From: Acidobacteriota bacterium
GTDB taxonomy: Bacteria > Acidobacteriota > Thermoanaerobaculia > Multivoradales > JAGPDF01
NCBI GenBank assembly: GCA_050258075.1
Contig: JBLMYC010000163.1
Span: 1-40,325, forward strand
Length of the DNA: 40,325 nt
Reading direction: 5' to 3'
Below, one piece after another: positions 2,059-40,325 of the stretch. Each line of letters begins with the position of its first letter. Position 1 is the stretch's first letter. The notes under the pieces were generated by a model that saw only the letters and a list, made by a program, of their open reading frames with translations, did not search any database and was not told the DNA's origin. Both the position numbers and the translations under genes were made by a program.

Positions 2059-4986
<2,928 letters not shown>

Positions 4987-5018
4987 GGCACTCCTCTCGG
5001 CACCAAATGCGTCTGACG

Positions 5019-5047
5019 TTTTTAGCACCGCCTCACCGCGGAGTCAA
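5019..5047 (-). promoter_or_regulatory. Sigma70-like promoter for the kinase gene (TTGACT-N17-TAAAAA)
   Basis: The minus strand reads TTGACT (5047..5042), a 17 nt spacer, then TAAAAA (5024..5019). This is about 26 nt upstream of ATG 4986, which carries the GAGAGGAG SD. Confidence 0.45.
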
Positions 5048-26930: not shown

Positions 26931-29258
26931 TCAGGGCCCTTCGGGCCGGGCGCGGGCGACGAAGAGCAGCCCGAGAGCGCCGAGGGCCGCGAGAGCGAAG
27001 CCCCAGCGAAGCGGCGTCCGGTCGACTGCGAGGGTCACCCGATGGCTGCCGGGCGGCACCTCGACCCCCATCCGGTAGAGGTTCGCGGCGAGCAGCGGGA
27101 CCTCGGCGCCGTCGAGACGGGCCCGCCACAGCGGCAGGTGGGAGCGCTGCACGACGAGCACGCCGCCGGCGGGCGCTTCGACCTGCGCGACGAAGGACTC
27201 GGCGTCCTGCCGCTCGACCACGACCGTCCCGGGCGCGACGTCGCGCGGCGCGCCGGACCCGGGGAGGACGGCGAGCGGCCCGGCGGCGGGATCCCGGCGG
27301 GTGAGCGCCGCCACCGCGGCGTTGATGTCCGGCGCGTAGCGCACCCGTGTCGCCAGGAAGGCCGCGGGCCAGGGCGACTCGACCGCGTAGACGTAGAGCT
27401 CGCGCCCGTAGCTCGGCAGCCCGCGCACCAGGCGCGCATGCCCGTCGGCCGGCGGTTCGAGCGGTCGATCGAGGAGCAGCCGCCCGACCCCCCAGGCCTG
27501 GAGGAGCAGCATCCGGCGCTCGTCATCGAGCTGCGCGACCGCGCCCTGGGCAACTCGGGCGAGGAACGAGTCGAGGCCCTCCGCCGAGCAGTCGAGCTCG
27601 TAACGGCGACCCCACAGCGTGCCGGCGGCCGGGTAGAGCTCGGCGAACGCCCGGCGCTCGACGAAGCGCAGGTCGGGCTCGGCGAAGCTGCCATCGGTGA
27701 TGCGGTTCTCGCCGAAGAGATCGAGGAAGCTGCCCTGGACGACCGGCGCGTCGCCTGGCACGTCGGCGAGGAGCGCCGGCGGCTCACGGTACGGCGCCGC
27801 GTCGTCCATCGGGTAAAGCGGGCGCAGCAGCCAGAGCTGCGCAGCGGCGTGCGCGGCGAGGAGCAGGCCCGCCCAGGCGGGACGGTGACGCGCGAGACGC
27901 AACAGGCCGAACAGCGCCGCGAGAACGACGAGCGAGATCAGGCACAGCCCCGCCCAGCGCAGACGCTCGTGGGCAACGAAGGCATCGGGGAAGGACGCAG
28001 GCACGACGCGGCGCAGCAGCGCCTGCATCGCCTCCGGACGCAGGGCCAGGGCCAGCCAGAGGAGCGCCAGGAAACCCGCCACGGTCGCCAGAGCCACGTT
28101 CTGCCGACGCCGCGCACCCGCATCGTCCGGCGCCGCGGTGCGCTCGTAGCCGATCCCGCACAGGACCGAGCCGCCGATCGCGACCAGCAGCCAGAGCTTG
28201 ATCGGATAGCGCAGCGCGCCGGCCCGGAACGCGAACGCAGCCAGCGGATTGAACCGGCCGAGGGCGAAGAAGACGCCGACCGCGACACTCGCCCACGCCC
28301 ACAGCGCCAACCGCCGGCCGGCCGGCCGCCCCGCCGCCGCCAGCCAGCCGAACACCAGCAGCCCGGGGTAGAGCGCCAGGTAGTACGGCGGCCGGCCGGT
28401 GTAGAACTGGCTGCCCCAGAACATGCCGGCGCCCAGCGAGTCCAGGCGCCCGAACGGCAACGGCAGCAGCCACTCGAGGACCTGGCGCGGATCGAACGAC
28501 TCGACCGTGCTGCTCGCGGCGCTGTAGCCGAAGTGGCCCCGGAACGAGAGCGGCAGGATGCGGAGCAGCTCCACCCACTGCGGCGCGGCGAGCAGGGTGC
28601 CGGCGAGAATCGCCAGCGCGAGCCCGCCGAGCGCCCGCCATTCGACCGGCCGGATCCAGAGCGCCCCGAGCGCCAGGAGCAGCGCCAGCCCGGCGAGCAG
28701 CGGCTCGCCGGCGAGGAGCAGCAGCGCCCACAGCAGGCCGGTCAGGATCAGGCCGCGGCGCGGGCGCTCGCCGGTCGCCTCGAGCGCCGCGGCGATGAGC
28801 GCCGGGGCGAGCGCCACGCCGGCGATCAGGTTGTAGAAGTTTAGGTTCGACAGCACGTAGCCGCTCGTCCCGTACACGATCCCGGCGGCCCACGCCGCCT
28901 CGCGGGCGAGACCGAGGCGGCGCGCCAGCCAGGCCATCGCGAACGGCGCGATCAGCAGGTGGAGCCAGAAGTGCGCGTTGAGCGCCCACAGGTCGCTGGC
29001 AAGGAGGTAAAGCACGTTGTCCGGGTAGAGCGGCACCGCGTTCGGGTTGCCGAGCAGGGGTTGACCGCCGGCGCGGTAGGGGTCGACGAGCGGCAGCCGC
29101 CCGGCGCGCAACGCCTCGGCCTCGGCGTGCTTCATCGGCAGGTGAGTGTTGAAGACGTCGCGCAGGAAGAGCGTCCTCCCGCCGCCGACGAGCGGCGCGA
29201 TCGCCAGCGTCAGGACGAGCGCGCCGGGGAGGACGAAGAGGAGGACGAAGCGTCTCAT
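26931..29258 (-). CDS. YfhO-family-like polytopic membrane protein (GT-C-type glycosyltransferase candidate), paralog 1
   Basis: 775 aa. The N-terminal pattern LFLRDVFNTHLP...GRLPLVDPYRAGGQPLLGNPNAVPLYPDNVLYLL matches the YfhO signature as I recall it. It has more than 10 TM helices. The C-terminal soluble region ends in ...GVEVPPGSHRVTLAV plus a final TM helix. Confidence 0.72.
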   Translation of the reverse strand: MRRFVLLFVLPGALVLTLAIAPLVGGGRTLFLRDVFNTHLPMKHAEAEALRAGRLPLVDPYRAGGQPLLGNPNAVPLYPDNVLYLLASDLWALNAHFWLHLLIAPFAMAWLARRLGLAREAAWAAGIVYGTSGYVLSNLNFYNLIAGVALAPALIAAALEATGERPRRGLILTGLLWALLLLAGEPLLAGLALLLALGALWIRPVEWRALGGLALAILAGTLLAAPQWVELLRILPLSFRGHFGYSAASSTVESFDPRQVLEWLLPLPFGRLDSLGAGMFWGSQFYTGRPPYYLALYPGLLVFGWLAAAGRPAGRRLALWAWASVAVGVFFALGRFNPLAAFAFRAGALRYPIKLWLLVAIGGSVLCGIGYERTAAPDDAGARRRQNVALATVAGFLALLWLALALRPEAMQALLRRVVPASFPDAFVAHERLRWAGLCLISLVVLAALFGLLRLARHRPAWAGLLLAAHAAAQLWLLRPLYPMDDAAPYREPPALLADVPGDAPVVQGSFLDLFGENRITDGSFAEPDLRFVERRAFAELYPAAGTLWGRRYELDCSAEGLDSFLARVAQGAVAQLDDERRMLLLQAWGVGRLLLDRPLEPPADGHARLVRGLPSYGRELYVYAVESPWPAAFLATRVRYAPDINAAVAALTRRDPAAGPLAVLPGSGAPRDVAPGTVVVERQDAESFVAQVEAPAGGVLVVQRSHLPLWRARLDGAEVPLLAANLYRMGVEVPPGSHRVTLAVDRTPLRWGFALAALGALGLLFVARARPEGP

Positions 29259-31477
29259 CGTCGCGCCGCCAGCAACGCCGCGCCCACCAGGCCGAGCGCC
29301 GCCAGGAGCGACGCCACTTGCTCGGGCCGATCACCGACCCGCAGCTCCACCCGGTGCTCGCCGGCCGGCACCTCGACCGCGAGCAGCGCCATGTCGGCGA
29401 TTCGAGTCGGGAGCGTCTGGCCCTCGGCGCTCGCCCGCCACAGTCGGTGGTAGGCCCGGCGCACGACGACGACACCACCCGGTCCACGGGTCTCGAGATC
29501 GATCGCGTCGGGCTCCATGCGCAGGACCTTGACCACCCCTCCCGGACGTTGCTCGACCGGAGCCGAGAGTGCCGGGCTCGCAATCGGGTCCGGTCCCTGC
29601 TCGACGACCGCCGCAGCAGCGCTCGGATCGGCGGCGAAGACGACTCGCTCCGGCCACCACGCGGCGGGGGCGGGGTGCTCGACCGCGAGCAGATGCGAGG
29701 TCACGCCCAGCCGTTCGGCCTGGGCGATCTCTTTCAGGCCATCGACCGCCACCTCCTCGTGGGTGACGATCGCGTCCACCCCGAGAGCCCGCAGCCAGCG
29801 CACTCGCGCCGCCCACGACGCATTGGAGACGCGGGCCATGACCAGGGCCTGCAGCGGCGTGCCCATGCCCTCGCTGTCCGGGCGCAGCGGATCCGCAAGC
29901 CCGAAGCGCACGCCCGGCGTCGGTGCGAGATCGGCGGCCTGCGCCCGCAGCAGCAGACTGCGCGGTCCGGCGACGCGGTAAGCCGGCACCGGGCCCCACG
30001 GCGGCTGCGACAGCGCGACGTCATGCACCGCAAACCCCGGCAGCAGCTTCACCCACTCCGCCGGCTCGCGGTACGGCCCGACCTCGTCGCGCAGCAGCAG
30101 CGGCCCGAGCTGCAACAGCCCCACAACCTGCAGCGCGACCAGCGCGGCGCCGCTGCGCCGCCGCGCCGCCAGCGCCGCCAGCGCGAGCAGCAGCGCGGCC
30201 AGTCCGAGCGCCAGGGCCGCCCCGCCGGCCTGGACGCCGAGCATCGTCCGCGCCGCCGCGTCGCGGGCCTGGTCGAGCAGGATGGCGCGCAGCAGCACGG
30301 CGGCGGCGGCCGCCGCCAGACAGAGGCCGGCGGCCAGCCCGGGGCCGAGGCCGCGCCGGCGCTCGCCGCCGAGCACCTCCTCGGTTCCCGCCGCGACCAG
30401 CAGCGCGGCGCCGAGCGCGGTCCAGAACAGCGCCTTCTCCGGATAGCGCAGCAGCCCGGCCGAGAACGTCACGAGCGCCGGCCCCGCCCAGCCGCCGGCG
30501 ACCCCGATCACGATCCCGCCGAGCGTCAGGGCGGTGGCGCCCCGCGTCCGGCGCGCGCCGACCGCCGCCAGATACAGCCCGACGATTCCGAAATAGAGGC
30601 TGAGGAAGAGCGGGCCGCGCGGCGCCAGCGCCGTGCCCCAGAAGCCGTACGGCCCGACCCAGGTCGGGCGTCCGAGGGGCAGCGGCACGACCAGCTCGAC
30701 CAGCCGCCCTAGGTGGAGCGCGTAGGAGCCCGGGACAATCTCGCCGGCCCGCGCGGCGAAGCCCACGATGCGCGCCGTCGCGACGATCTGCGGCAAGGCG
30801 ACGACGAGCCCGAGGCCGACGATCGTGCCGCCCACGACGAGCGCCTGCCGAACCCCGTGCCGGTGCAAGATGAGCGCGAGCGGCACCACGCCGAGCAGCG
30901 CCGTCACCGGCTCGCCGCCGAGCAGGGCGAGCCCGAGCGCGACTCCGCCGAGCGCCATGCCGCGGCGATCGCCGCGTTCGGCGCCGAGCAGCACCCACGG
31001 CCACCACGCCGCGACCGTGACCAGGTTGTAGAAGGTCAGCGCGCCGAGGAACCAGCCGCAGCCGGCGTAGGTGATCGCCCCGGCGAGCGCCGCGGCGGGC
31101 GAGCGGCCGCGGGCGCGCAGCAGCGCCAGCATGCCGAGCCCCGCGAGCCCCCAGTGCAACACGAAATGCAGATTGAAGGCCCGCCAGAACGGCAGCAGGC
31201 GATACAGCAGGTTGTCCGGGTAGTACGCCAGCGCGGCGGGATTGCCGCGGAACGGCTGGCCGAGGCCCGCGGTCGGGTCGAAAGCCGGCACCCGACCGGC
31301 TGCGAGCTCCGCCGCGCCAAAGGCCTTGACCGGGAAGTTGTTGCCGAAGACGTCGCGGAAGCAGAGCGTCTCGCGCCCCAGCGCCAGCGGCACCGCGATC
31401 CACAGCCAGAGGGCCGCGATCGCAGTCACCACCGCCCACAGCCTCAACCCCTCGCCATCCCGTCTCGCGTCGATCAC
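29255..31477 (-). CDS. YfhO-family-like polytopic membrane protein, paralog 2
   Basis: Inside ORF 29255..31732. Clear paralogy to 26931..29258: LCFRDVFGNNFP...GRVPAFDPTAGLGQPFRGNPAALAYYPDNLLYRLL and the C-terminal AVEVPAGEHRVELRV plus TM. ATGA overlap with paralog 1. The start is uncertain (GTG 31477, TTG 31447 or GTG 31432); the upstream part of the ORF is shadow sequence opposite the UbiA gene. Confidence 0.7.
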   Translation of the reverse strand: MIDARRDGEGLRLWAVVTAIAALWLWIAVPLALGRETLCFRDVFGNNFPVKAFGAAELAAGRVPAFDPTAGLGQPFRGNPAALAYYPDNLLYRLLPFWRAFNLHFVLHWGLAGLGMLALLRARGRSPAAALAGAITYAGCGWFLGALTFYNLVTVAAWWPWVLLGAERGDRRGMALGGVALGLALLGGEPVTALLGVVPLALILHRHGVRQALVVGGTIVGLGLVVALPQIVATARIVGFAARAGEIVPGSYALHLGRLVELVVPLPLGRPTWVGPYGFWGTALAPRGPLFLSLYFGIVGLYLAAVGARRTRGATALTLGGIVIGVAGGWAGPALVTFSAGLLRYPEKALFWTALGAALLVAAGTEEVLGGERRRGLGPGLAAGLCLAAAAAAVLLRAILLDQARDAAARTMLGVQAGGAALALGLAALLLALAALAARRRSGAALVALQVVGLLQLGPLLLRDEVGPYREPAEWVKLLPGFAVHDVALSQPPWGPVPAYRVAGPRSLLLRAQAADLAPTPGVRFGLADPLRPDSEGMGTPLQALVMARVSNASWAARVRWLRALGVDAIVTHEEVAVDGLKEIAQAERLGVTSHLLAVEHPAPAAWWPERVVFAADPSAAAAVVEQGPDPIASPALSAPVEQRPGGVVKVLRMEPDAIDLETRGPGGVVVVRRAYHRLWRASAEGQTLPTRIADMALLAVEVPAGEHRVELRVGDRPEQVASLLAALGLVGAALLAARR

Positions 31478-31500
31478 GTGCTCCCGGCTCTCCAGCCCCG

Positions 31501-31506
31501 TAGAAT
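31501..31506 (+). promoter_or_regulatory. -10-like TAGAAT, 7 nt upstream of GTG 31514 (UbiA-family gene). The reverse complement TATTCT faces the YfhO-like genes.
   Basis: Read directly: CCCCGTAGAATACCCGCCGTG. Confidence 0.35.
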
Positions 31507-31513
31507 ACCCGCC

Positions 31514-32386
31514 GTGCTCGTGCCCCTCGTCCGCTCGCTGCGTCCCGCCCAGTGGTCGAAGAACGTCTTCGTCTTCGCGCCCCTCGTCTTCGCACAGAAG
31601 CTCCAGGACCCCCACGCCCTGCTGCGCGCAACGCTCGCCTTCGCCGCCTTCTGCAGCGCGGCGAGCGCCGTGTACCTGGTCAACGACGTGCGCGACCGCG
31701 ACGAGGACCGCCGCCATCCGCTGAAGCGTCACCGCGCGATCGCCGCCGGCACGCTCGGGGTCGGCCCGGCGCTCGTCGCGGCAACGCTGCTCGCCGTCGC
31801 GGCGGGCGTCGCCGCCTGGCGCCTGGGCCCAGCGTTCACGGCGCTGCTCGGCGGCTACGTGCTGCTCAATCTGACCTATTCACTCTACTTGAAGCAGCGC
31901 GTGATCCTCGACGTGATGGCGATCGCCGCCGGCTTCGTGCTGCGCGTCGTCGCCGGCGCGGTCGCGGTGCCGGCGCCGGTGTCGAGCTGGCTGCTCCTGT
32001 GCACGATCTTCCTGGCGCTGTTCCTCGCCTTCTCCAAGCGCCGCCATGAGCTGACCCTGCTGCAGGACGGCGCGGCCGACCAGCGCCGGGTGCTCGAGCA
32101 CTACTCGCCCGCCTTCCTCGACCAGATGATCAACGTGGTGACGGCGTCGGCGGTTGTCTCCTACGCCCTGTACGCGGTGGCACCGGAGACGGTGCAGAAG
32201 TTCCACACCGAGCACCTGGTCTACACCGTGCCACTGGTGCTGTTCGGGATCTTCCGCTACCTGTACCTCGTGTACCAGAGCCCGGGGGCGCGCAACCCGA
32301 CCGAGGCGATCCTGCACGACCCGCCGTTCCTGCTCAACATCGCGCTGTGGGGCCTGGCGGTGCTGTGGATCGTGTATGGCCTCTGA
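31514..32386 (+). CDS. UbiA-family decaprenyl-phosphate phosphoribosyltransferase-like enzyme (DPPR synthase type)
   Basis: In the frame of ORF 30713..32386. LRPAQWSKNVFVFAPLVFA, the Asp-rich motif YLVNDVRDRDEDRRHPLKRHRAIAAG, and a second motif region with about 8 TM helices. The start is GTG 31514, or alternatively GTG 31478. Confidence 0.82.
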   Translation: MLVPLVRSLRPAQWSKNVFVFAPLVFAQKLQDPHALLRATLAFAAFCSAASAVYLVNDVRDRDEDRRHPLKRHRAIAAGTLGVGPALVAATLLAVAAGVAAWRLGPAFTALLGGYVLLNLTYSLYLKQRVILDVMAIAAGFVLRVVAGAVAVPAPVSSWLLLCTIFLALFLAFSKRRHELTLLQDGAADQRRVLEHYSPAFLDQMINVVTASAVVSYALYAVAPETVQKFHTEHLVYTVPLVLFGIFRYLYLVYQSPGARNPTEAILHDPPFLLNIALWGLAVLWIVYGL

Positions 32387-33431: not shown

Positions 33432-34930
33432 CGGCGGGCGCGCAGCGCCTCCGGCACCCGGTACAGGCGCCAGCGCGTGCCGCTGGTGACCGGCACCAGA
33501 CCGGCGCGCTCCACCAGATGGCGATGAATGGCCTCGTCGCCGCTCGCGATCACCCAGTCGAAGTAGGCGAAGTCGGAGATGCGCACCCGGTTCGGCAGCC
33601 ATTCGAGGCCCAGGGTCCAGGGGCCGCTGCGCGGGGTGCGATAGACGACCAGCGAGGGGGCGAAGTCGGCGAACGAGAAGTTCAACTCGCCGCCCTTCAT
33701 CACCTGGGCGTACGCAAAATCCTGGATGAACGGGTTGCCCCGGATGATCAGGCTCTCCGGGTAGTAGCTGAGCCCGAGAACCCGCGGCTTCTCGGGCAGG
33801 GCGGCGACCGCCGGCGCCAGTCCGTCCAGCTCCACGCTGGAGAACGCGATCCAGTAGACGCTGGTGCCGGCAACGAACAGCGTCAGCGCCGCGACGGGCA
33901 GCCAACGCACGAGCGCCGCTGGCAAGCGCGGCGCCGGCGCCGCGAGCAGCAGCGCCACGACCGCACAGGGCATCCAGCGCTCGGCGAGGTGAATCGTGTT
34001 CTGCGCCTCCATCGGCAGCACGGCGGCCGGCAGGAAGAGGACCCCGGCGAGCAGCAGCAGGCGCGGCGACCAGGCCGCCCGTCCTTCGGCGCGGTGCTGC
34101 CAGGCGGCGAGGAGCAGCCAACCGAGCACCACCAGCAGAAACACCGGCTCGAGATTGCCGCGCAGCCCGCCGAGCACCGCGTCTTTCAATCCCGACGGGC
34201 CGAAACGCGCCCAGACGCTCGCCGGCCAGTAGACCGGCGAGTCGAAGCCGCGGCGCCCCAGGGTCGGATACCACCACAGCGCCAGCAGGCCGACCGGCGA
34301 AACCGCAAGGCCACGCAGGAACTGCTCGCGCCACGGCAGACGTGCTCGCCACCCGTCGACGACCAGCCACAGACAGCCCATCGCGAACCACAGGACATGG
34401 CTGAAGTAGAGCAGCGCGGCGCCGCCGAGGAGGCGCGCCGCCGCGCGCCAGTCGCAGCGCGCGTCCGGCTCGACCTCGGTCAGCCGCAGCCAGACGACGA
34501 AGACCACCCAGCCAAAGAGGAAGCTCAGGAATCCCCAGTACAGGGTGTGATTGAACACCAGCGCCGACGCGAGCACCGCCGCGCTCGCCGGGCGGCGCAG
34601 TCGGACGGCGAGCCAGTGCACGGCGCCGACCCACAGAGCGACGACCAGCAGGAAGCCCAGTCGCCCGGCCCACGCCGGACCGCCTAGGAGCCAGCCGACG
34701 GCGGGCAGGACGTAGGACAGGCCATACGGCGTCAGCCACTGGATGCGATAGAGATCGGCGTGCTCGCCGAGCGCCTCGCCGAACAGTCGGATCTGCGCCG
34801 CGTGCTGCGGCAGGTCGGTGATCGGCGGGAAGCGGACGAGCAGGAAGGGGACAACGACCAGGACGATCGCGACCGCGGCCAGGCCCAGCCGGCCGCGCTC
34901 GGAGGTGCTGGTCGACGGCTCGGCGCTCAT
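33335..34930 (-). CDS. Uncharacterised polytopic membrane protein (about 11 TM helices plus a C-terminal soluble domain); possible glycosyltransferase or polymerase
   Basis: 531 aa ORF with ATG 34930. It has hydrophobic helices throughout (LGLAAVAIVLVVVPFLLV, FLLVVALWVGAVHWLAV, ...), then a soluble region LGLSYYPESLIIRGNPFIQDFAYAQVMKGGELNFSFADF... I recognise no family. The last ~32 codons are antisense to the PAP2 gene end. Confidence 0.6.
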   Translation of the reverse strand: MSAEPSTSTSERGRLGLAAVAIVLVVVPFLLVRFPPITDLPQHAAQIRLFGEALGEHADLYRIQWLTPYGLSYVLPAVGWLLGGPAWAGRLGFLLVVALWVGAVHWLAVRLRRPASAAVLASALVFNHTLYWGFLSFLFGWVVFVVWLRLTEVEPDARCDWRAAARLLGGAALLYFSHVLWFAMGCLWLVVDGWRARLPWREQFLRGLAVSPVGLLALWWYPTLGRRGFDSPVYWPASVWARFGPSGLKDAVLGGLRGNLEPVFLLVVLGWLLLAAWQHRAEGRAAWSPRLLLLAGVLFLPAAVLPMEAQNTIHLAERWMPCAVVALLLAAPAPRLPAALVRWLPVAALTLFVAGTSVYWIAFSSVELDGLAPAVAALPEKPRVLGLSYYPESLIIRGNPFIQDFAYAQVMKGGELNFSFADFAPSLVVYRTPRSGPWTLGLEWLPNRVRISDFAYFDWVIASGDEAIHRHLVERAGLVPVTSGTRWRLYRVPEALRARRQSELGGALPPAATPVASPPASGSTSSRQASQ

Positions 34931-34938
34931 CGGGGCCC

Positions 34939-34945
34939 TAGAATA
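34939..34945. promoter_or_regulatory. TAGAATA box in the divergent intergenic region. TAGAAT lies 7 nt before ATG 34952 (+), and TATTCT lies 9 nt before ATG 34930 (-).
   Basis: Read directly: GGGGCCCTAGAATAGCCGACATG. It resembles the box at 31501-31507. Confidence 0.35.
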
Positions 34946-34989
34946 GCCGACATGTCGCGCCCGATTCGCCGCGCCCGGTGCTGTCGCCG

Positions 34990-36132
34990 ATGCGATTGAC
35001 CGAGGTCGTCGTCCGCTTCCACCCCTACGTCGGAGGGGTCGAGACCACGGTGTACGAGCTCGGCCGTCGGCTGGCGCGGCGCGGCCACGCGGTCGAGGTC
35101 GTCTGCGCCGACGTGCCGGCCGGAGCGCCGCCCGAGGTCGCGGGCATCGCGGTGCGCCGGCTGCCGGTCTTCGGCCGCATCGCCGACACTCCGCTGTCGC
35201 GCGGCGTGGCGCGCACCGTCCGCGCCACGCGGCCGGACGTCGTGCACGCCCACATGACGCCGCCGTGGTGGTGCGACGGCGCAGCGCGCGCCGCGCGGGG
35301 GCTGCGCGTACCGCTCCTCCTCACGTACAACAACGACGTGGTCGGGCGCGGTCTCGGGGCACTCGTCGCCGGGCTGTACAACCGGCTGTTCCTGCCGGGC
35401 CTGCTGCGCGGCGCCGAACGCGTCGTGCTGCCCAACCCGGCTTATCGCGATCTCTCGTCTTGGCTGCGCGCGTCCCCGGCCCGTTTCCTGAGCATCCCTT
35501 GGGGAGTCGACACCGAGCGCTTCGCTCCGGTGGCGCTGCCGAGCGAACCGGGCCTGGTCCTGACCTTTCTCGCCGTGCTCAAGGCTCAGCACGCCTACAA
35601 GGGCCTCAGCCCGCTCCTCGCGGCGCTGGCGGACGCACGCCACGCCGGAGCGACGGCACGGCTGCGGGTCGGCGGGGCCGGCGATCAGCTCCCGCGCTAC
35701 CGCGAGGAGGCGGCGCGGCTCGGTCTCGGCGACGCGGTCGAGTTCCTGGGCTTCGTCCCCGACGCCGAGCTGCCGGCGTTCTTCCACTCCGGGGACGTCT
35801 TCGTCCTGCCCTCGACGACCGCCGCGCAGGAAGGCTTCGGCCTGGTGCTGCTCGAGGCGATGGCGAGCGGCCGCGGCGTGCTGACGACCCCGGTGGTCGG
35901 CATGGCGGCAGAGATCCGCGAGGCCGGCGCGGGCGTCCTCGTCGCCCCCGGCGAGGTGGCCGCGCTCGCCGACGCGATCGTCGCCCTGGCCGCCGATCCG
36001 GCCCCGACCCGCGCCCGGCTCGCCGCGATGGGCGAGCGCGGACGGCGGCTGGTCGAGCGCCGCTTCGACTGGGAGCGCGTCACCGACGCCTACGAGCGCC
36101 TGCTCCAGGAGCTCGTCGCGGCGCGGGTCTGA
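34990..36132 (+). CDS. GT4-family (GT-B fold) glycosyltransferase
   Basis: MRLTEVVVRFHPYVGGVETTVYELGRRLARRGHAVEVV ... PSTTAAQEGFGLVLLEAMASGRGVLTTP (EX7E-type motif). The start is ATG 34990, or alternatively GTG 34978. Confidence 0.88.
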   Translation: MRLTEVVVRFHPYVGGVETTVYELGRRLARRGHAVEVVCADVPAGAPPEVAGIAVRRLPVFGRIADTPLSRGVARTVRATRPDVVHAHMTPPWWCDGAARAARGLRVPLLLTYNNDVVGRGLGALVAGLYNRLFLPGLLRGAERVVLPNPAYRDLSSWLRASPARFLSIPWGVDTERFAPVALPSEPGLVLTFLAVLKAQHAYKGLSPLLAALADARHAGATARLRVGGAGDQLPRYREEAARLGLGDAVEFLGFVPDAELPAFFHSGDVFVLPSTTAAQEGFGLVLLEAMASGRGVLTTPVVGMAAEIREAGAGVLVAPGEVAALADAIVALAADPAPTRARLAAMGERGRRLVERRFDWERVTDAYERLLQELVAARV

Positions 36133-36149
36133 TACCCTCCCGTTTCGAC

Positions 36150-37316
36150 TTGAGCGAGCCAGCGCGCCCCCGTTCGCCGGAGCCCGAGCTCGAGGTCTCG
36201 GTGGTGATGCCCTGCCTGAACGAGGCGGCGGGGGTCGGGGTCTGCGCGGAGAAGGCGCGCGCGGCGCTCGCGAAGATGGGTGTCGCAGGCGAGGTCGTAG
36301 TGGTCGACAACGGCTCGACCGACGGCTCGCCGGAGATCGCCGCGCGGGCCGGGGCGCGGGTCGTCCACGAGCGCCGGCGCGGCTACGGCTCGGCCTACCT
36401 GCGCGGCTTCGCCGAGGCGCGCGGCCGCTACCTGGTGATGGGCGATGCCGACGACACGTACGACTTCACCGCCATCCCGGCCTTCGTCGAGCCCCTGCGC
36501 CGCGGCTGCGACCTAGTGATGGGCACGCGCCTCAAGGGCGAGATCCTGCCCGGCGCGATGTCCTGGAGCCACCGCTGGATCGGCAATCCCATCCTGTCCG
36601 GCATGCTGAAGCTGTTCTTCAAGACCCGGATCTCCGATTCGCACTGCGGCATGCGCGCCCTCACCCGCGACGCGTTCGAGCGCATGGATCTGCGCACCAC
36701 CGGCATGGAGTTCGCCTCGGAGATGGTGGTCAACGCGCTGCGCGCCGGGCTGCGCATCGAGGAGATCCCGATCACCTACCGGCGCCGCATCGGCGAGTCG
36801 AAGCTGGCCGGCATGCGCGACGCCTGGCGGCACATCCGCTTCATGCTGCTCTTCTCGCCGGCCTGGCTCTTCCAGCTCCCCGGGGTGCTGTGCCTGCTGG
36901 TGGGTGGCGTGCTCAGCGCACTGTTCGCGACCGGGCCGCGCGTCGTCCTCGGGCGCACGTTCGACTACCACGTTCTGTGGCTGGGCGTGCTGCTGCTGAT
37001 CCTGGGCTACAACCTGGTGCTGTTCGACGCGCTGGCGAAGACCTTCTCGATGGGCGCCGGCTTCGCTCGCCCGCAACAGTGGCTGCGCCGGTTCCTGAAC
37101 GTGTTCACGCTCGAGCGCGGCCTGCTCTGGGGAGCGCTGCTCTTCCTCGCGGGCGTGGCGCTCGAGGCGAAGATCGCCTTCGACTGGGCGCACGCCGGCT
37201 ACGGCCCGCTCACCGCCCATCGCGGCTTCATCCTCGGGATGACCGCGATGGTCATGGGCGCGCAGACCGTCTTCGCCTCGTTCCTGATCGACCTGATGCT
37301 GATCCGGAGGCGTTGA
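36150..37316 (+). CDS. GT2-family glycosyltransferase with C-terminal TM helices (polyprenyl-phosphate sugar synthase, GtrB/CsbB/DPM1-like)
   Basis: In the frame of ORF 35265..37316, whose 5' two-thirds are shadow sequence across the GT4 gene. VSVVMPCLNEA, VVVVDNGSTDGS, MGDADDTYD, and four C-terminal hydrophobic helices. The start is uncertain (TTG 36150 or GTG 36201). Confidence 0.82.
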   Translation: MSEPARPRSPEPELEVSVVMPCLNEAAGVGVCAEKARAALAKMGVAGEVVVVDNGSTDGSPEIAARAGARVVHERRRGYGSAYLRGFAEARGRYLVMGDADDTYDFTAIPAFVEPLRRGCDLVMGTRLKGEILPGAMSWSHRWIGNPILSGMLKLFFKTRISDSHCGMRALTRDAFERMDLRTTGMEFASEMVVNALRAGLRIEEIPITYRRRIGESKLAGMRDAWRHIRFMLLFSPAWLFQLPGVLCLLVGGVLSALFATGPRVVLGRTFDYHVLWLGVLLLILGYNLVLFDALAKTFSMGAGFARPQQWLRRFLNVFTLERGLLWGALLFLAGVALEAKIAFDWAHAGYGPLTAHRGFILGMTAMVMGAQTVFASFLIDLMLIRRR

Positions 37317-37321
37317 GCCCG

Positions 37322-38053
37322 ATGCCCGGCATGCTGAGCCGCTTTCTCGAGCGCACATTCCGCTCGACCGAGGAGGCCAATCGCCGCGCGATCTTGGCGC
37401 TGGCGGATCCCCGCCCCGGCGGGCGCCTGCTCGACTGCGGCTGCGGCGACGGCAAGTTCTCGATGGCGCTCGCTGCGCGCCTCGAGGCGCGCGAGGTACA
37501 CGGCATCGAGGCCGTGCCGGATCGGGTGCGCTCCGCCGCCGGCCGCGGCATGATCGTCGCGCAGGCCGACCTCGAGGCCCATTGGCCGTATCCCGACGGA
37601 CATTTCGACGTGGTACACGCCAACCAGTTGCTCGAGCACCTGCGCCAGAGCGATCATTTCCTGCGCGAGCTTCGGCGCGTGCTCGCTCGCGGCGGCTACG
37701 CCTTGATCTCGACCAACAACCTGGCGAGCTGGCACAACGTCGTCTCGCTCATGCTCGGTTTTCAGCCGCCGCCGATGCACGTGTCGAACGAAGTCGTGCT
37801 CGGCAACCCGCTCGACCCCTTGCGCGGCCATCGCTTCGGGGCGCCCGAGGACAGCCACCTGCGCATCTACAGCTTTCGCGCCCTGCGCGACTTCGCCGAA
37901 TACCACGGGTTCCGGGTGGCAGCGTTGCGGACGGCCGGGTACTACCCGCTGCCGCCCGCGCTGGCCCGCATGATGACCAGGCTCGACCGCCAGCACGGCG
38001 TTTTCCTGATCGCCAAGCTCGCTCCGTCCGGACCGCCGGGCAGCGAGCCCTAG
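37322..38053 (+). CDS. Class I SAM-dependent methyltransferase
   Basis: ATG 37322 inside ORF 36890..38053. SAM motif I RLLDCGCGDGKF, plus DVVHANQLLEHL and RVLARGGYALIST. Confidence 0.85.
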   Translation: MPGMLSRFLERTFRSTEEANRRAILALADPRPGGRLLDCGCGDGKFSMALAARLEAREVHGIEAVPDRVRSAAGRGMIVAQADLEAHWPYPDGHFDVVHANQLLEHLRQSDHFLRELRRVLARGGYALISTNNLASWHNVVSLMLGFQPPPMHVSNEVVLGNPLDPLRGHRFGAPEDSHLRIYSFRALRDFAEYHGFRVAALRTAGYYPLPPALARMMTRLDRQHGVFLIAKLAPSGPPGSEP

Positions 38054-38628
38054 ACGGGCTTCAGTGGTTCGAGTTCGAAATACAGCTCGTTCGCGGGAAG
38101 CATCCAGCAGAGGAATCGCTCGTAGAACAGAGGGAAGCGATTGATCAACCAGGTGAGCAGTCGCCCTGGGACCTCGCGTTTCTCGTTCTTGATCCAGTAG
38201 AAGAGGATCTGGCGGCGCCGAATGCGGAAGCGTAGATCGGAGTAGAAGTTGTAGACGCCGTCCTCCGTGAAGTAGTCGAAGCTGTGGTAGCCGAAGAAGC
38301 GGCGGTGCGTCGGGTCGGTGTAGGCGCCGAAGAAGGACAGATGAGGAACGGTGATCCGGATCACCGCTCCGGCGCCCGCTATCCGCCAGAGCTCGCGCAG
38401 CAGCGGCAAGAGGTTCGTGACATGCTCCAACGTGTGTACCGCGATGACCTCGTCGAACGTAGCGCTGCGAAACGGCAGCGGTCTCTCGAGATCGGCGATC
38501 ACGTCGACTCCCGGCACCCGCACGACGTCCAGATTGACATAGCCGCTGCGGCGATCGCGGCCACATCCGAGATTGAGCCTCCTCACCGCGCTCGAATATA
38601 GCAGCCGGGTGAGACGCGTGACCGACAC
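38050..38628 (-). CDS. Class I SAM-dependent methyltransferase (Methyltransf_11-like), in a low-GC patch
   Basis: RRLNLGCGRDRRSGYVNLD, FDEVIAVHTLEHV, LRELWRIAGAGAVIRITVP. The start is GTG 38628 or ATG 38676. My hand count over 38051-38160 gives about 54% GC. Confidence 0.75.
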   Translation of the reverse strand: MSVTRLTRLLYSSAVRRLNLGCGRDRRSGYVNLDVVRVPGVDVIADLERPLPFRSATFDEVIAVHTLEHVTNLLPLLRELWRIAGAGAVIRITVPHLSFFGAYTDPTHRRFFGYHSFDYFTEDGVYNFYSDLRFRIRRRQILFYWIKNEKREVPGRLLTWLINRFPLFYERFLCWMLPANELYFELEPLKPV

Positions 38629-39529
38629 GAGACGCCTGATCGTGCGCTGGTTGCCGTGGTTGGTAGCTGGCGCCATCGTCGCCGCCCTCTTTTCGCGTGT
38701 CGATCCGCAAGGCCTCCGCCAGGCTTTTCGCGGTGCCCCTCTTCTGGTCCTGATCCCCTACGTAGTGCTGGAGATCCTCGCCGCCTGGCCGCTCGACTCC
38801 CTTGCCACCCAAGCCGCGTTTGCCGCGGCGCAGATCAGGCGGCCGTACGGTGAGATTCTGGCGATGCGGGGAGCGAGCTACATCCTCGGCCTGTTGAGCT
38901 ACGCCCTCGGCCAGGGGGGCACCGGCGTCTATCTGGTGCGCACCGGAGCGCGGGCCTCGCGCGCGGCGGCGGCCGTGGCGCTGCTGCTGGTCGTGAACGG
39001 CCTCGCGCTGGTCCTGTTCAGCGCCGCCGGCCAGTGGGCTCCGCAGGCGGGAAACTCGGCCTACCGGATGCTCGCAGCCGGCCTGACGATCGCCGCGCTG
39101 CTCTATCTGCTCCTGATCGCGGCCCTCCCGGCGCGTCACGTGCCCTTCCGCCTCCTCGTCCCGCTCTTCGACGCCGGTGTCATGGGGCACATTCGAGCCA
39201 CGGCGGCGCGCGCGCCGCACGTCGCTCTGCTCGTCCTCCTGCACTGGGGTGCGTTCAGGATCTGGGGGATCCAGCTGCCGTTGATCCAGGCCGTGATCTG
39301 GATCCCCTCGATGATCCTCGTCGGAGCCTTGCCGATCACTCCCTCCGGGCTCGGCACGGTCCAGGCACTGCAAGTCCTGCTCTTCTCGAGGTACGCGCCC
39401 GGTGCCACGGCGGCGGCCCGCGCCGCCGACGTGCTTGCCTTCAGTCTGGTGCACCAGCTGCTGGCGATCGTCGCGCAGGCCGCGCTCGGCCTCGCCTGCC
39501 TGGCCAGGCTGCAGCGCTCCGACAGATGA
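38618..39529 (+). CDS. UPF0104 / lysylphosphatidylglycerol-synthase-TM-like (flippase-like) membrane protein
   Basis: In the frame of ORF 38573..39529. RRLIVRWLPWLVAGAIVAALFSRVDPQGLRQAF, followed by about 8 TM helices. The start is uncertain (38573, GTG 38618 or GTG 38642). ATGA overlap with the next GT4 gene. Confidence 0.65.
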   Translation: MTDTRRLIVRWLPWLVAGAIVAALFSRVDPQGLRQAFRGAPLLVLIPYVVLEILAAWPLDSLATQAAFAAAQIRRPYGEILAMRGASYILGLLSYALGQGGTGVYLVRTGARASRAAAAVALLLVVNGLALVLFSAAGQWAPQAGNSAYRMLAAGLTIAALLYLLLIAALPARHVPFRLLVPLFDAGVMGHIRATAARAPHVALLVLLHWGAFRIWGIQLPLIQAVIWIPSMILVGALPITPSGLGTVQALQVLLFSRYAPGATAAARAADVLAFSLVHQLLAIVAQAALGLACLARLQRSDR

Positions 39530-40325
39530 GAATCGCTCTGCTCTACGACTGTGTCTACCCGGAGAGTCTCGGCGGAGTCGAACACCGCAACCACGAGCTG
39601 GCGGCCGCTCTGGGCGAGCTCGGGCACGAGGTCACGATCGCCGGCTTCACGGTGACGTCACGCGACGTCGCCAAGAACGCGCGAGTCCTGTCGCTCGGCC
39701 CACCGGGGAAGCTGTACGACCGGCAGGGCAAGCGGCGCGCCGCGGAAGCCCTGCGATTCGCCCGGGCCTGCTCGCGCCTGGACGTCACTGCGTACGATCT
39801 CGTCGAGACGGCGAACATCCCCTACGCTCACCTCCTGCCACTCGCCCGGCGCTGCCGCCGTGCGCACCGACCGCTGGTCGTCACCTGGCACGAGTACTGG
39901 GGATCGTACTGGCGCCGCTACGCCGGCCCACTGCGCGGCACCGCCTTCGCGCTCGTTGAGCGCGCCACCGCCCGGATCGGCGCGGCGATCGCAGTCAGTC
40001 GACTGACCGGCGAGCGTCTCGCCGCGCGCCGCGGTCGGCCGGTCGAGGTCGTGCCGAACGGCATCCCGGTCGCTCGCATCCGCGCCGCCGCCGCACGGGC
40101 AATTCCCGGCTCGCCGCTCTTTCTGGCCGGCCGCCTGGTGCGCGAGAAACGCGTCGATCTGCTGCTCGCGGCGGTCGATCGGCTGCGCCAGGAGTTCCCG
40201 GCGCCGCTTCTGGCGATCGCCGGCGACGGCCCCGATGCCGAGCGGCTGCACCGACTCGCCGCACCGCTCGGGCCGCACGTCCGCTTTCTCGGCCGTCTGC
40301 CGACGAGCGACGACGTCTGGCGCGC
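39526..40325 (+). CDS. GT4-family glycosyltransferase, N-terminal ~266 codons; runs off the right edge of the window
   Basis: My own translation from ATG 39526: MRIALLYDCVYPESLGGVEHRNHELAAALGELGHEVTIAGF ... VVPNGIPV ... LFLAGRLVREKRVDLLLAAVDRL...LAIAGDGPD...VRFLGRL. It is not in the ORF track because no stop falls in the window. Confidence 0.8.
   Translation, partial: MRIALLYDCVYPESLGGVEHRNHELAAALGELGHEVTIAGFTVTSRDVAKNARVLSLGPPGKLYDRQGKRRAAEALRFARACSRLDVTAYDLVETANIPYAHLLPLARRCRRAHRPLVVTWHEYWGSYWRRYAGPLRGTAFALVERATARIGAAIAVSRLTGERLAARRGRPVEVVPNGIPVARIRAAAARAIPGSPLFLAGRLVREKRVDLLLAAVDRLRQEFPAPLLAIAGDGPDAERLHRLAAPLGPHVRFLGRLPTSDDVWR

Follow-up and report, generated by a model that had tools for sequence, protein, structure and literature searches.

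Three-component pentofuranose systems of diderm bacteria were characterised in the O antigens of Citrobacter and called widespread by Kelly et al. (PNAS 2024; PMC11127046). The Citrobacter youngae O1/O2 system is encoded by ORF15-ORF14-ORF12, and the study also mentions "more elaborate systems containing multiple ... GT-Cs" (PMC11127046). An older case of polyprenyl-phosphoribose combined with a periplasmic GT-C, cited there, is the D-arabinofuranosylation of pilin in Pseudomonas (para)aeruginosa PA7/Pa5196, for which the summary given in PMC11127046 lists a PPPRS, a separate phosphatase, DprE1/E2 homologs and the GT-C TfpW. The mycobacterial decaprenyl-phospho-arabinose pathway is composed of the UbiA enzyme Rv3806c, the PAP2 phosphatase Rv3807c, DprE1/DprE2 and the Emb/Aft GT-C enzymes. 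In Firmicutes, YfhO works together with a CsbB/GtrB-type GT2.

Here we analyse a locus of twelve genes from a Thermoanaerobaculia genome (Acidobacteriota bacterium), located at positions 26931-40325 of a 40-kb window, that is, of the whole stretch of DNA considered (40,325 nt). In the explanation that we favour as the probable one, these genes make up a diderm's envelope-glycan locus, driven by polyprenyl-monophosphate-linked sugar donors, a three-component pentofuranose glycosylation system as in Kelly et al. 2024 but built from non-orthologous parts. Judging from the sequence, it would make a lipid-linked ribose-type donor and attach the sugar to an envelope glycan outside the cytoplasmic membrane. 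A first-pass annotation of this DNA had presented such a merger of polyprenyl-phosphoribose and periplasmic GT-C logics in a diderm as undescribed. However, the overall kind of system is already known (PMC11127046), and the locus is a new-looking version of a Gram-negative pathway described in 2024; what is new is the family of its GT-Cs and the proteins proposed as phosphatase and flippase.

Gene content of the locus

The gene content given in the first-pass annotation was recovered in full: all twelve genes are present at or very near the positions then reported, with support from codon-position GC and the independent gene calls of a 93.7% identical relative, L085, and with families assigned by Pfam and NCBIfam profiles (Table 1). 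It had also noted that no wzx/wzy/wzz, ABC exporter or DprE1/DprE2 genes were visible, and a check of the window's called genes likewise revealed no Wzx, Wzy, Wzz or glycan ABC exporter and no DprE1, DprE2 or SDR epimerase. The window encodes a single ABC pair, which is FtsE/FtsX-like. Unlike mycobacteria, the host is an LPS-type diderm, with BamD and OmpA-family genes inside the window and KdtA/LpxK-like genes recognised by eye in related loci.

Table 1. Features of the acidobacterial locus, in positions of the window.
Feature	Position	Strand	Length	Assignment	Profile matches
Yf1	26931..29258	-	775 aa	Candidate GT-C-fold membrane glycosyltransferase, YfhO-like family outside Pfam's coverage	
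Yf2	29255..31477	-	740 aa	Tandem paralog of Yf1	
UbiA	31514..32386	+		Putative polyprenyl-phosphate 5-phosphoribosyltransferase (PPPRS/DPPR-synthase homolog)	PF01040, NF008977
PAP2_3	32376..33431	+	351 aa	Membrane protein, candidate 5'-phosphatase of polyprenyl-P-5-phosphoribose	PF14378 84.8 bits
TM11	33335..34930	-	531 aa	Predicted GT-C fold (ArnT/AftB-like), C-terminal alpha/beta periplasmic domain	
GT4	34990..36132	+		Cytoplasmic Leloir-type glycosyltransferase	Glycos_transf_1 101.8 bits, Glyco_transf_4 87.5 bits
GT2	36150..37316	+		Membrane-anchored, polyprenyl-phosphate sugar synthase type (DPMS/ArnC/GtrB-like), C-terminal TM helices	PF00535 92 bits
MT1	37316..38053	+		Class I SAM methyltransferase	Methyltransf_23 79 bits, Methyltransf_11 64.8 bits
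MT2	38050..38676	-		Second SAM methyltransferase	Methyltransf_11 29.2 bits
LPG_synthase_TM (UPF0104)	38573..39529	+		Candidate flippase for polyprenyl-P-sugar donor(s)	PF03706 50.7 bits
Second GT4	39526..40325	+		Cut by window end	Glyco_transf_4 78.1 bits

At its right-hand end the locus continues in an overlapping contig, L001, where the second GT4 is 375 aa long and is followed by a convergent gene. The two methyltransferases reported initially are both present, the second requiring a correction of its strand; MT2 is missing from L085 by gene list and blastn, which together define positions 38026-39329 as a segment replaced relative to L085. LPG_synthase_TM is called as 254 aa in L001, and its real start is probably downstream of 38573.

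The predicted phosphoribosyltransferase and GT-C proteins

UbiA, initially labelled DPPR-synthase-like, is placed by its sequence with phosphoribosyltransferases and away from quinone and haem prenyltransferases. It scores 310.7 bits against NF008977, "decaprenyl-phosphate phosphoribosyltransferase" (equivalog cut-off 234), and 235.7 bits, also above cut-off, against a second phosphoribosyltransferase equivalog model. It also matches the solved structure 8j8j of the mycobacterial Rv3806c (E = 2.1e-37, 35% identical) and keeps the PRPP/Mg site, in which 11 of 14 residues are identical, R22, K28, Y70, N73, D77, K87, R90, Y138 and K143 among them, and three are conservatively changed (Q135N, Y157F, K208R). 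The PRPP-binding residues of Rv3806c are described in PMC10994848, according to which the phosphoribose-binding sites are not kept in ordinary UbiA prenyltransferases.

UbiA and Yf2 are divergent genes separated by a 36-bp gap. Yf1 has nothing above threshold in Pfam or NCBIfam, and the Pfam YfhO model scores 13.7 bits on Yf1 and 26.1 bits on Yf2, both below the threshold of 28.5, so that the kinship to YfhO is a remote one only. In profile-profile comparison (hhalign), Yf1 aligns over its whole length with a protein that does score as YfhO (probability 100%, E = 1.9e-42). With some 13 TM helices, a beta-sandwich-containing periplasmic domain and a TM helix at the C terminus, Yf1 also follows the layout of the YfhO of Firmicute YfhO/CsbB/GtcA teichoic-acid systems (N-terminal TM bundle, extracytoplasmic domain, C-terminal TM helix). 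We searched AlphaFold (AF2) models of Yf1 and TM11 against the PDB using Foldseek. For Yf1 (pLDDT 92.2, pTM 0.93) the nearest solved structure is AftD, a DPA-dependent arabinofuranosyltransferase (6w98, E = 4.9e-10), and all subsequent matches are GT-C enzymes (PglB, STT3, Emb, AftA). Yf1 is accordingly modelled inside the GT-C fold; of the earlier label "two YfhO-like GT-C candidates", the second half holds for the Yf1 model, whereas the first is qualified by the sub-threshold YfhO scores and by AftD as the nearest structure. Residues R33-D34, directly past TM1 of Yf1, are invariant. Yf2, also 740 aa as called in L085, shares 36% identity with Yf1 across the N-terminal 336 residues (E = 4e-31).

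TM11 had been set aside as an unclassifiable ~11-TM protein and has no match in Pfam, but its model (pLDDT 90.3) can be classified: it resembles ArnT (5ezm, E = 5.9e-5, probability 1.0) and AftB (9dlh, probability 0.99), which on the predicted structure places TM11 in the GT-C fold. Its invariant D39 lies in the motif FPPITDLPQH past TM1. Thus, like mycobacteria and the elaborate systems of PMC11127046, the locus has several GT-Cs, although at the sequence level these fall outside the Emb/Aft families. The YfhO-like partners also differ from the systems of Kelly et al.: when compared with the GT-C candidate of one system listed there, neither Yf nor TM11 shows detectable similarity in sequence.

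GT2, proposed to be of the GtrB/CsbB type, does belong to the polyprenyl-phosphate glycosyltransferases, as indicated by matches to the solved structures of DPMS (5mlz, E = 1.6e-17) and ArnC (E = 6e-11). Its best NCBIfam matches, AglJ and Dol-P-hexose transferase, are below cut-off, and its ortholog in L085 contains PF26629 (GT2_TM_C). A membrane GT2 of this type is a further likeness to the Firmicute systems, from which the locus differs in having no GtrA/GtcA flippase and a diderm host without teichoic acids.

Candidate phosphatase and flippase

As in mycobacteria, a PAP2-superfamily protein is encoded immediately downstream of UbiA, although it is of the PAP2_3 type and inconsistently linked to UbiA. 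Its start overlaps the UbiA stop by 11 nt, as is also the case in L085 and L088, and the catalytic His/His/Asp motifs are kept (invariant K112, S264-L265-H266, H305 and D309). This translationally coupled protein is a candidate for the phosphatase of the locus. Presumably it resembles phosphotransferase-type PAP2 enzymes, since it lacks the canonical KxxxxxxRP motif. The UbiA-PAP2 association pointed out in the first pass is present here but intermittent in relatives: the two adjoin in 4 of 80 related UbiA-anchored loci and at 2 of 5 PAP2-anchored places, one of them in the near-identical L085 (adjoining in L019, L022, L030, L059, L085 and L088; PAP2_3 without adjoining UbiA in L086, L087 and L089). 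Because of this sparse linkage, and because homologs at 43-54% identity occur in unrelated neighbourhoods, PAP2_3 may be a general lipid phosphatase or phosphotransferase.

LPG_synthase_TM is the sole candidate flippase. The suggestion comes from its family name and proximity: it lies beside GT2 and 6 kb from UbiA, and scores 21 bits, below cut-off, against TIGR00374 ("flippase-like domain"). In 20 of the 80 loci, some of them without Yf, such genes occur no more than 10 kb from UbiA, and one cluster of these genes, represented in 11 loci, usually adjoins UbiA directly. The equipment thus differs from that of Citrobacter, having a separate PAP2_3 candidate in place of a fused HAD phosphatase domain and no MATE or SMR transporter.

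Predicted pathway and the transferred sugar

In the pathway that we propose, UbiA would move 5-phosphoribose from PRPP onto polyprenyl phosphate at the cytoplasmic face, as its family and active site suggest. Removal of the 5'-phosphate, for which PAP2_3 is the candidate in this genome, would give polyprenyl-P-ribofuranose, and the lipid-linked pentose would then be flipped to the periplasmic face, possibly by LPG_synthase_TM. Yf1 and Yf2, YfhO-like/AftD-like GT-C proteins by fold and motif, would pass the pentofuranose to a periplasmic acceptor, with the invariant Asp just past TM1 as the likely catalytic base; their donor and acceptor are suggested by the conserved divergent gene pair. In a second donor branch, GT2 may make a polyprenyl-P-hexose or amino sugar for transfer by the ArnT-like TM11, while the two cytoplasmic GT4s and two methyltransferases may build or decorate the acceptor glycan. 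The sequence of phosphoribosyltransferase, 5'-phosphate removal, flippase and periplasmic GT-C is that of Citrobacter (PMC11127046); a DPPR-synthase homolog, a separate phosphatase and a GT-C in a diderm also recall the Pseudomonas pilin system as summarised there.

Ribofuranose is the most probable sugar to be transferred: neither DprE1/DprE2 nor an SDR epimerase is encoded nearby, and in the systems of Kelly et al. the presence or absence of epimerases sets the sugar (PMC11127046). An alternative that we consider unlikely is that the same machinery transfers arabinofuranose (or xylofuranose), polyprenyl-P-ribose being converted by epimerases of the DprE1/DprE2-like or SDR kind whose genes lie outside the locus, as in mycobacterial arabinan synthesis and Pseudomonas pilin arabinosylation. 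An epimerase could indeed be encoded elsewhere in the genome: in M. tuberculosis too, dprE1/E2 are not adjacent to ubiA. Epimerase add-ons occur in the UbiA clade, as in L076 UbiA is directly preceded by homologs of DprE2 and of DprE1 (the latter with 43% identity, E = 7e-103), and GalE-like SDR genes flank UbiA in L081 and L070 (Binatia and Zixibacteria loci). The likeness of Yf1 to AftD and of TM11 to AftB points the same way. However, fold likeness to AftD is silent on sugar specificity, Citrobacter ORF12 taking both Ribf and Xylf donors. Moreover, in 79 of the 80 loci neither DprE1/E2 nor another epimerase is encoded within 10 kb of UbiA, whereas in the survey of Kelly et al. epimerase genes lay inside the candidate modification systems (PMC11127046). 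The absence of DprE1/E2 nearby separates this locus from both the mycobacterial and the Pseudomonas pathways.

Conservation of the locus in related genomes

Sixty-seven of the 80 surveyed loci have enough flank for assessing Yf adjacency. In 44 of these, Yf is divergently adjacent to UbiA, in one to four tandem copies, the array always abutting UbiA whatever its copy number; the same neighbour was found when starting independently from the Yf homolog P0117 on an 8.4-Mb contig. The association of UbiA with YfhO-like genes anticipated in the first pass is therefore kept in relatives, but its 13.4 kb do not form a single conserved unit: Yf and UbiA are a core conserved across the class, and PAP2, GT2 and other genes form a variable cassette beside it. 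The Citrobacter system, in contrast, is a serotype-specific add-on of the O-antigen cluster. In the Candidatus Multivorans group, eleven loci keep UbiA with no Yf next to it, as do a few loci outside that group. Genes of another GT-C type (PMT_2) and more large membrane proteins that match nothing in Pfam are recurrent neighbours of UbiA.

A second alternative, ranked after arabinofuranose and likewise improbable, uncouples Yf1/Yf2 from UbiA: they would act like Firmicute YfhO on a GT2-made polyprenyl-P-hexose, leaving the phosphoribose lipid to a different GT-C (TM11, or one from elsewhere) or to a role other than glycan decoration. The end-to-end homology to a YfhO-scoring protein and the suitable GT2 in the locus fit this arrangement. 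In addition, Yf and UbiA sit in conserved housekeeping synteny, flanked by accC/BCCP at one end and by genes for M20 peptidases and pilins at the other; adjacency alone could therefore reflect inherited gene order. Yet the Yf array remains attached to UbiA as its copy number varies, while just 22 of 80 loci have GT2 within 10 kb, many loci have Yf and UbiA without GT2 (L004, L014, L020 and others), and no more than 5 of 80 contain TM11. Unlike in Firmicutes, it is the phosphoribosyltransferase, and not GT2, that stays linked to Yf across genomes, in line with the pentofuranose transfer by Yf1/Yf2 that we prefer. That UbiA is instead an ordinary aromatic or lipid prenyltransferase (quinone, haem O, ether lipid) beside conventional hexose glycosylation only is very improbable: it shares the PF01040 superfamily, but haem O synthase and UbiA models give 20-38 bits against cut-offs of ~180-390, compared with above-cut-off scores for both phosphoribosyltransferase models, the phosphoribose-specific K28 and Y70 are kept, and plasmid-borne homologs, labelled decaprenyl-phosphate phosphoribosyltransferase by PGAP, neighbour DprE1/E2-like or HAD and GtrA genes.

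Recalling the Pseudomonas pilin system, type IV pilin/prepilin-peptidase-like genes, named from their sequences, are found near UbiA, 5-8 kb downstream in ~18-24 related loci. This proximity belongs to the conserved gene order of the backbone and gives no evidence for pilin as the acceptor.

Gene content and boundaries of the glycan locus

The locus encodes two tandem large membrane proteins (Yf1 and Yf2, which define the Yf family), a homolog of polyprenyl-phosphate 5-phosphoribosyltransferases (PPPRS; hereafter UbiA), a candidate 5'-phosphatase (PAP2_3), a third large membrane protein (TM11), a GT2, two GT4s, two methyltransferases (MT1 and MT2) and a candidate flippase of the LPG_synthase_TM family (UPF0104). 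Coordinates were derived from an ORF listing and codon-position GC, and are consistent with independent gene calls on L085, a contig of a close relative with 93.7% identity; those of UbiA were set by tblastn. Together with Pfam and NCBIfam searches, which confirmed all soluble-domain assignments, these calls bear out the gene content proposed in the first-pass annotation. PAP2_3 and TM11 are convergent, with a 97-nt overlap of their 3' ends (33335-33431).

Predicted genes of the glycan locus
Gene	Coordinates	Strand	Product
Yf1	26931-29258	-	775 aa
Yf2	29255-31477	-	740 aa
UbiA	31514-32386	+	290 aa
PAP2_3	32376-33431	+	351 aa
TM11	33335-34930	-	531 aa
GT4 (first)	34990-36132	+	
GT2	36150-37316	+	
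MT1	37316-38053	+	
MT2	38050-38676	-	
LPG_synthase_TM	38573-39529	+	
GT4 (second)	39526 to window end	+	

Upstream, the locus is preceded by housekeeping genes (accC and a BCCP gene). At its other end, the contig breaks inside the second GT4 (40325), and the L085 contig ends about 260 nt further into the same gene. The short contig L001 alone reads through it, which suggests that strains differ here or that assemblies are broken by a repeat just downstream. In L001, which overlaps the window, the second GT4 is 375 aa long and a convergent gene comes next; the locus thus probably ends there. The gene calls of the window include no Wzx, Wzy, Wzz, glycan ABC exporter, DprE1, DprE2 or SDR epimerase; all but the last had already been reported as not visible in the initial reading.

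The G+C content of the window is 70-75%, and the nearest relatives of its proteins come from MAGs labelled Thermoanaerobaculia or Acidobacteriota. The window encodes BamD (YfiO), OmpA-family and TonB_C domains, and related loci contain genes identified by eye, not by profile, as KdtA- and LpxK-like; together these point to a diderm host with LPS-type machinery. Elsewhere in the window (2059-5028, minus strand), a 989-aa protein displays an unusual fusion of an N-terminal response-regulator receiver match, weak at 26.3 bits against a Pfam cut-off of 30.2, with a Ser/Thr protein kinase and a C-terminal TonB_C domain.

UbiA belongs to the phosphoribosyltransferase family

UbiA scores above both NCBIfam equivalog cut-offs for decaprenyl-phosphate phosphoribosyltransferases (NF008977, 310.7 bits, cut-off 234; NF008978, 235.7 bits, cut-off 207), and models of haem-O, quinone and chlorophyll prenyltransferases reach merely 17-38 bits. 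It also aligns with the solved structure of the M. tuberculosis counterpart, Rv3806c (8j8j; E = 2.1e-37, 35% identity over 263 columns). When the PRPP-site residues were mapped from the Rv3806c structure paper (PMC10994848), R22, K28, Y70, N73, D74, D77, D81, K87, R90, Y138 and K143 (Rv3806c numbering) turned out to be identical in UbiA, and Q135, Y157 and K208 to be conservatively replaced by N, F and R, respectively; the change of Tyr157 to Phe occurs in some mycobacteria as well (PMC10994848). The Mg2+/pyrophosphate motif N-D-x-x-D-x-x-x-D corresponds to N57, D58, D61 and D65 of UbiA, and the K/R cluster to R10, K71, R74 and K127, aligned with R22, K87, R90 and K143 of Rv3806c. The phosphoribose contacts of Rv3806c, which are absent from ordinary UbiA enzymes (PMC10994848), are represented by K16 and Y54 (K28 and Y70 in Rv3806c), N119 (Q135) and F141 (Y157). 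The equivalog scores and these phosphoribose-specific contacts make an ordinary prenyltransferase very unlikely. The scores and PRPP-site residues place UbiA, as first proposed, with phosphoribosyltransferases and not with quinone, haem or chlorophyll enzymes. Judged by its sequence, UbiA is a member of the Rv3806c/PPPRS family with predicted PRPP-dependent activity.

Epimerases were sought by tblastn in related loci. The queries were the DprE1- and DprE2-like proteins of a Flammeovirgaceae plasmid (L084), whose genes lie beside one for a DPPR-synthase homolog. Homologs were detected in only one of 80 loci (L076, 6110-8162), immediately upstream of UbiA, which predicts an arabinofuranose version there. 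GalE-like SDR genes flank UbiA in a few loci outside Thermoanaerobaculia (L081 and L070; Binatia and Zixibacteria), which may be xylofuranose versions. Given that neither DprE1/DprE2 nor an SDR epimerase was found in the window and that DprE1/DprE2 occur in 1 of 80 loci, ribofuranose is the parsimonious sugar, as far as this local search goes.

Yf1 and Yf2 represent a divergent branch of YfhO-like GT-C proteins

Yf1 and Yf2 are paralogs (36% identity over 336 residues, E = 4e-31). Homologs are numerous, and every one is an unnamed 'hypothetical protein' that carries no Pfam domain. The Pfam YfhO model (PF09586) yields 13.7 bits for Yf1 and 26.1 bits for Yf2, both under the gathering score of 28.5; it touches just six of 40 family members at E<0.1, and eight of the nine full-length representatives scanned have no Pfam match to YfhO. 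A direct search of the Yf2 sequence against solved structures gave nothing meaningful.

With a 40-sequence alignment as input, AlphaFold2 produced a confident model of Yf1 (pLDDT 92.2, pTM 0.93), which consists of an N-terminal TM bundle, a periplasmic domain including a beta-sandwich and a C-terminal TM helix. In a Foldseek search against the PDB, the best match was AftD (E = 4.9e-10), a decaprenyl-P-arabinose (DPA)-dependent arabinofuranosyltransferase, followed by PglB, STT3, EmbA/B, AftA and PMTs, all of them GT-C enzymes. Global TM-scores are modest (0.47), as expected of multi-domain membrane proteins at 14% identity. The catalytic acid of GT-C enzymes sits just after the first TM helix, and the invariant R33-D34 directly follow the first TM helix (2-24) of Yf1. 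The modelled structure thus has the GT-C fold, in agreement with the initial proposal, with a conserved acidic residue after TM1; catalysis is predicted.

A search with the Yf profile retrieved 5,499 cluster representatives at E<=1e-30 and 52,283 at E<=1e-3. The best 150 matches are all close family members; the approximately 52,000 matches at the looser threshold surely include YfhO proper. The relationship with YfhO was instead traced through P0346, a protein of 1,640 aa in which two YfhO-like GT-C modules are fused in tandem; its C-terminal half belongs to the Yf family. The Pfam YfhO score of P0346, 86.7 bits, covers two matched stretches of the whole protein, the best of them lying in the N-terminal half, so that part of the score may stem from the C-terminal half. 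Aligned by hhalign with the N-terminal half, the Yf profile matches at 100% probability (E = 1.9e-42, 721 columns). This full-length match to the half with the best YfhO stretch argues that Yf is a divergent, Pfam-uncovered branch of YfhO-like GT-C proteins. The 'YfhO-like' label of the first-pass annotation therefore holds through P0346, but assignment to YfhO proper does not, both proteins being under the 28.5-bit Pfam threshold.

TM11 and further candidate GT-C families

TM11, initially set down as an unclassifiable protein with about 11 TM helices, has no Pfam match. Its model (pLDDT 90.3; the last 19 residues are of low confidence and probably disordered) retrieved ArnT (E = 5.9e-5, probability 1.0) and AftB (probability 0.99) in Foldseek searches, and D39, within the FPPITDLPQH motif after TM1 (helix 11-31), is invariant. 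Based on the model, TM11 is a third GT-C of the locus by fold. Sequence kinship between the Yf family and TM11 can be dismissed, since neither BLASTP of Yf1 against TM11 nor hhalign of the two profiles revealed a relationship; they represent independent GT-C families. Compared by hhalign with the candidate GT-C from Rhizobium sp. CCGE531, which was taken from the SI list of PMC11127046 as a proxy for GT136 in place of the founding ORF12, neither profile shows a resemblance (probability 0.1% for Yf and 1.4% for TM11). The GT-C candidate on a Lactococcus plasmid, compared to the same end, showed no similarity either.

Two recurrent large multi-TM proteins without Pfam matches, one of about 519 aa (cluster c7, 21 related loci) and one of about 722 aa (cluster c28, eight related loci), occupy the variable slot adjoining UbiA and may be further unrecognised GT-C families. 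Cluster c7 is not similar to the TM11 profile.

Predicted functions of GT2, PAP2_3 and LPG_synthase_TM

GT2 matches PF00535 (92 bits) and the solved structures of dolichol-P-mannose synthase (DPMS; 5mlz, E = 1.6e-17) and ArnC (6e-11), and its ortholog in L085 carries the GT2_TM_C domain (PF26629). Its GT2 catalytic domain is followed by C-terminal TM helices. It stays under NCBIfam equivalog cut-offs (AglJ and others). By sequence similarity, GT2 is a predicted polyprenyl-phosphate sugar synthase of the DPMS/GtrB/ArnC type, in line with the membrane-anchored GtrB/CsbB type initially suggested. In PAP2_3, K112, S-L-H (264-266), H305 and D309 are invariant, which makes PAP2-type phospho-histidine chemistry plausible. 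PAP2_3 shows no evident canonical KxxxxxxRP motif, so both phosphatase and phosphotransferase are candidate roles. LPG_synthase_TM (PF03706, 50.7 bits) is a candidate flippase on account of its family (the MprF flippase domain; TIGR00374, 'flippase-like') and its proximity.

A conserved Yf-UbiA pair adjoins a variable cassette

To assess conservation, we mapped the window proteins and family HMMs onto 80 genome loci with close UbiA relatives (50-77% identity), taken with flanks of up to 10 kb in either direction. In Thermoanaerobaculia, the backbone order is BCCP, AccC, one to four Yf genes, UbiA, variable genes, M20 peptidase, pilin, M20 peptidase and prepilin peptidase. Among the 67 loci whose upstream sequence extends to 2.5 kb or more, 44 have Yf divergently adjoining UbiA, so the proposed association is kept in relatives; UbiA was likewise found next door when the search started from a Yf homolog, on a contig of 8.4 Mb. 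Other components occur within 10 kb of UbiA far less regularly: GT2 in 22, LPG_synthase_TM in 20, GT4 in 16, TM11 in five, and PAP2_3 and MT1 in four each of the 80 loci. One LPG_synthase_TM cluster (11 loci) usually directly adjoins UbiA. The variable slot also hosts DegT aminotransferases, sulfatase-family and spermine-synthase-like membrane proteins, PMT_2 GT-Cs and several large Pfam-less TM proteins. In the homologous glycan locus of an 8.4-Mb relative (L082, 6298-6926), a PIN/PhdYeFM toxin-antitoxin pair lies mid-locus.

The UbiA-PAP2 pairing, whose conservation the first-pass annotation suggested surveying, is confined to few loci. Besides the 4/80 UbiA-anchored loci, look-ups anchored on PAP2_3 homologs placed it next to UbiA in L085 and L088, where the stop and start codons overlap, but not in L086, L087 or L089.

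The window and L085 are collinear except for about 1.3 kb (38026-39329), where nucleotide similarity is not detectable and G+C falls to about 0.67. Here the window encodes MT2 and a divergent LPG_synthase_TM allele, and L085 encodes LPG_synthase_TM without MT2. It looks as though recombination has exchanged a cassette within the glycan locus, which fits a recombining variable cassette.

Type IV pilin-like and prepilin-peptidase-like genes, flanked by M20 genes, recur beyond the variable glycan slot in about 18-24 related loci, 5-8 kb downstream of UbiA (e.g. L004, L019, L027, L030, L058 and L073; labels read from the sequences rather than from profile searches). Their position recalls the arabinosylation of Pseudomonas pilin, but may be only backbone synteny; pilin as the acceptor was set aside, this synteny being uninformative.

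Comparison with known pentofuranose systems and a proposed mechanism

The Thermoanaerobaculia are a largely uncultured acidobacterial class whose envelope glycans, to our knowledge, have never been characterised by experiment. In the first-pass annotation, the merger of a periplasmic glycosylation system with a polyprenyl-phosphoribose branch was taken to suggest an undescribed envelope polymer or decoration. The phosphoribosyltransferase and the GT-C fold stand, but the novelty of the merger does not, the same logic having been reported for Citrobacter O antigens (PMC11127046). There, three components attach α-pentofuranose side chains in the periplasm: a polyprenyl-phosphoribose synthase, in which a UbiA-type domain homologous to Rv3806c is fused to a HAD phosphatase, a MATE flippase and a GT-C founding the family GT136; optional epimerases turn ribofuranose into xylofuranose or arabinofuranose (PMC11127046). 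The authors tie this system to mycobacterial arabinan synthesis and Gtr-type periplasmic glucosylation (PMC11127046).

The window differs from that system in several respects. The HAD (PRP) phosphatase is fused to or beside the synthase in the known system, whereas the 290-aa UbiA has no extra domain and no HAD match was found in the window, leaving PAP2_3 as the substitute candidate. Matches to MATE, SMR or GtrA families were not found in any window gene; LPG_synthase_TM is the only candidate flippase. The transferase, which is YfhO/AftD-like, is probably non-orthologous too. Finally, the Yf-UbiA pair is class-wide instead of serotype-specific, and Yf occurs as tandem paralogs. The mycobacterial DPA pathway employs the DprE1/DprE2 pair, absent from the window, and its PAP2 protein Rv3807c is linked to ubiA; the PAP2-superfamily protein of the window overlaps the UbiA stop and is of the PAP2_3 type. 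A full-text literature search found no paper linking YfhO-type proteins to phosphoribose lipids.

The likeliest mechanism, which we regard as reasonably probable, comprises four steps. UbiA would make polyprenyl-P-5-phosphoribose, the 5'-phosphate would be removed by a phosphatase, probably PAP2_3 in this genome, the lipid-linked ribose would be flipped to the periplasm, and Yf1 and Yf2 would move ribofuranose onto an envelope acceptor. The accessory cassette would provide a second polyprenyl-P-sugar branch (GT2 and the ArnT-like TM11), cytoplasmic GT4s and methyltransferases. A more far-reaching and rather unlikely alternative is that the pathway, class-wide and chromosomally fixed, uses one to four tandem AftD/YfhO-like GT-Cs of an unrecognised family and an LPG_synthase_TM-type flippase to polymerise or branch a periplasmic pentofuranose glycan (ribofuranan or arabinan-like) from polyprenyl-P-ribose. 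If so, this would be a Gram-negative counterpart of mycobacterial arabinan and not a single side-chain decoration.

The four-step mechanism would extend the three-component pentofuranose pathway to a new phylum, with predicted non-orthologous replacements for three parts, namely, a Pfam-uncovered large GT-C family, a PAP2_3 phosphatase candidate and an LPG_synthase_TM-type flippase candidate; no current concept is overturned. If confirmed, it would help to assign functions to many 'hypothetical' membrane proteins and make the divergent Yf-UbiA pair a genomic marker predicting ribofuranose-containing envelope structures.

Separately, an EPS cluster on the dairy Lactococcus cremoris plasmid pF27D (L083, 7599-10718) encodes, in this order, a 462-aa hypothetical membrane protein, a DPPR-synthase homolog, an HAD-IB phosphatase and GtrA, and looks like a Gram-positive three-component pentofuranose system.
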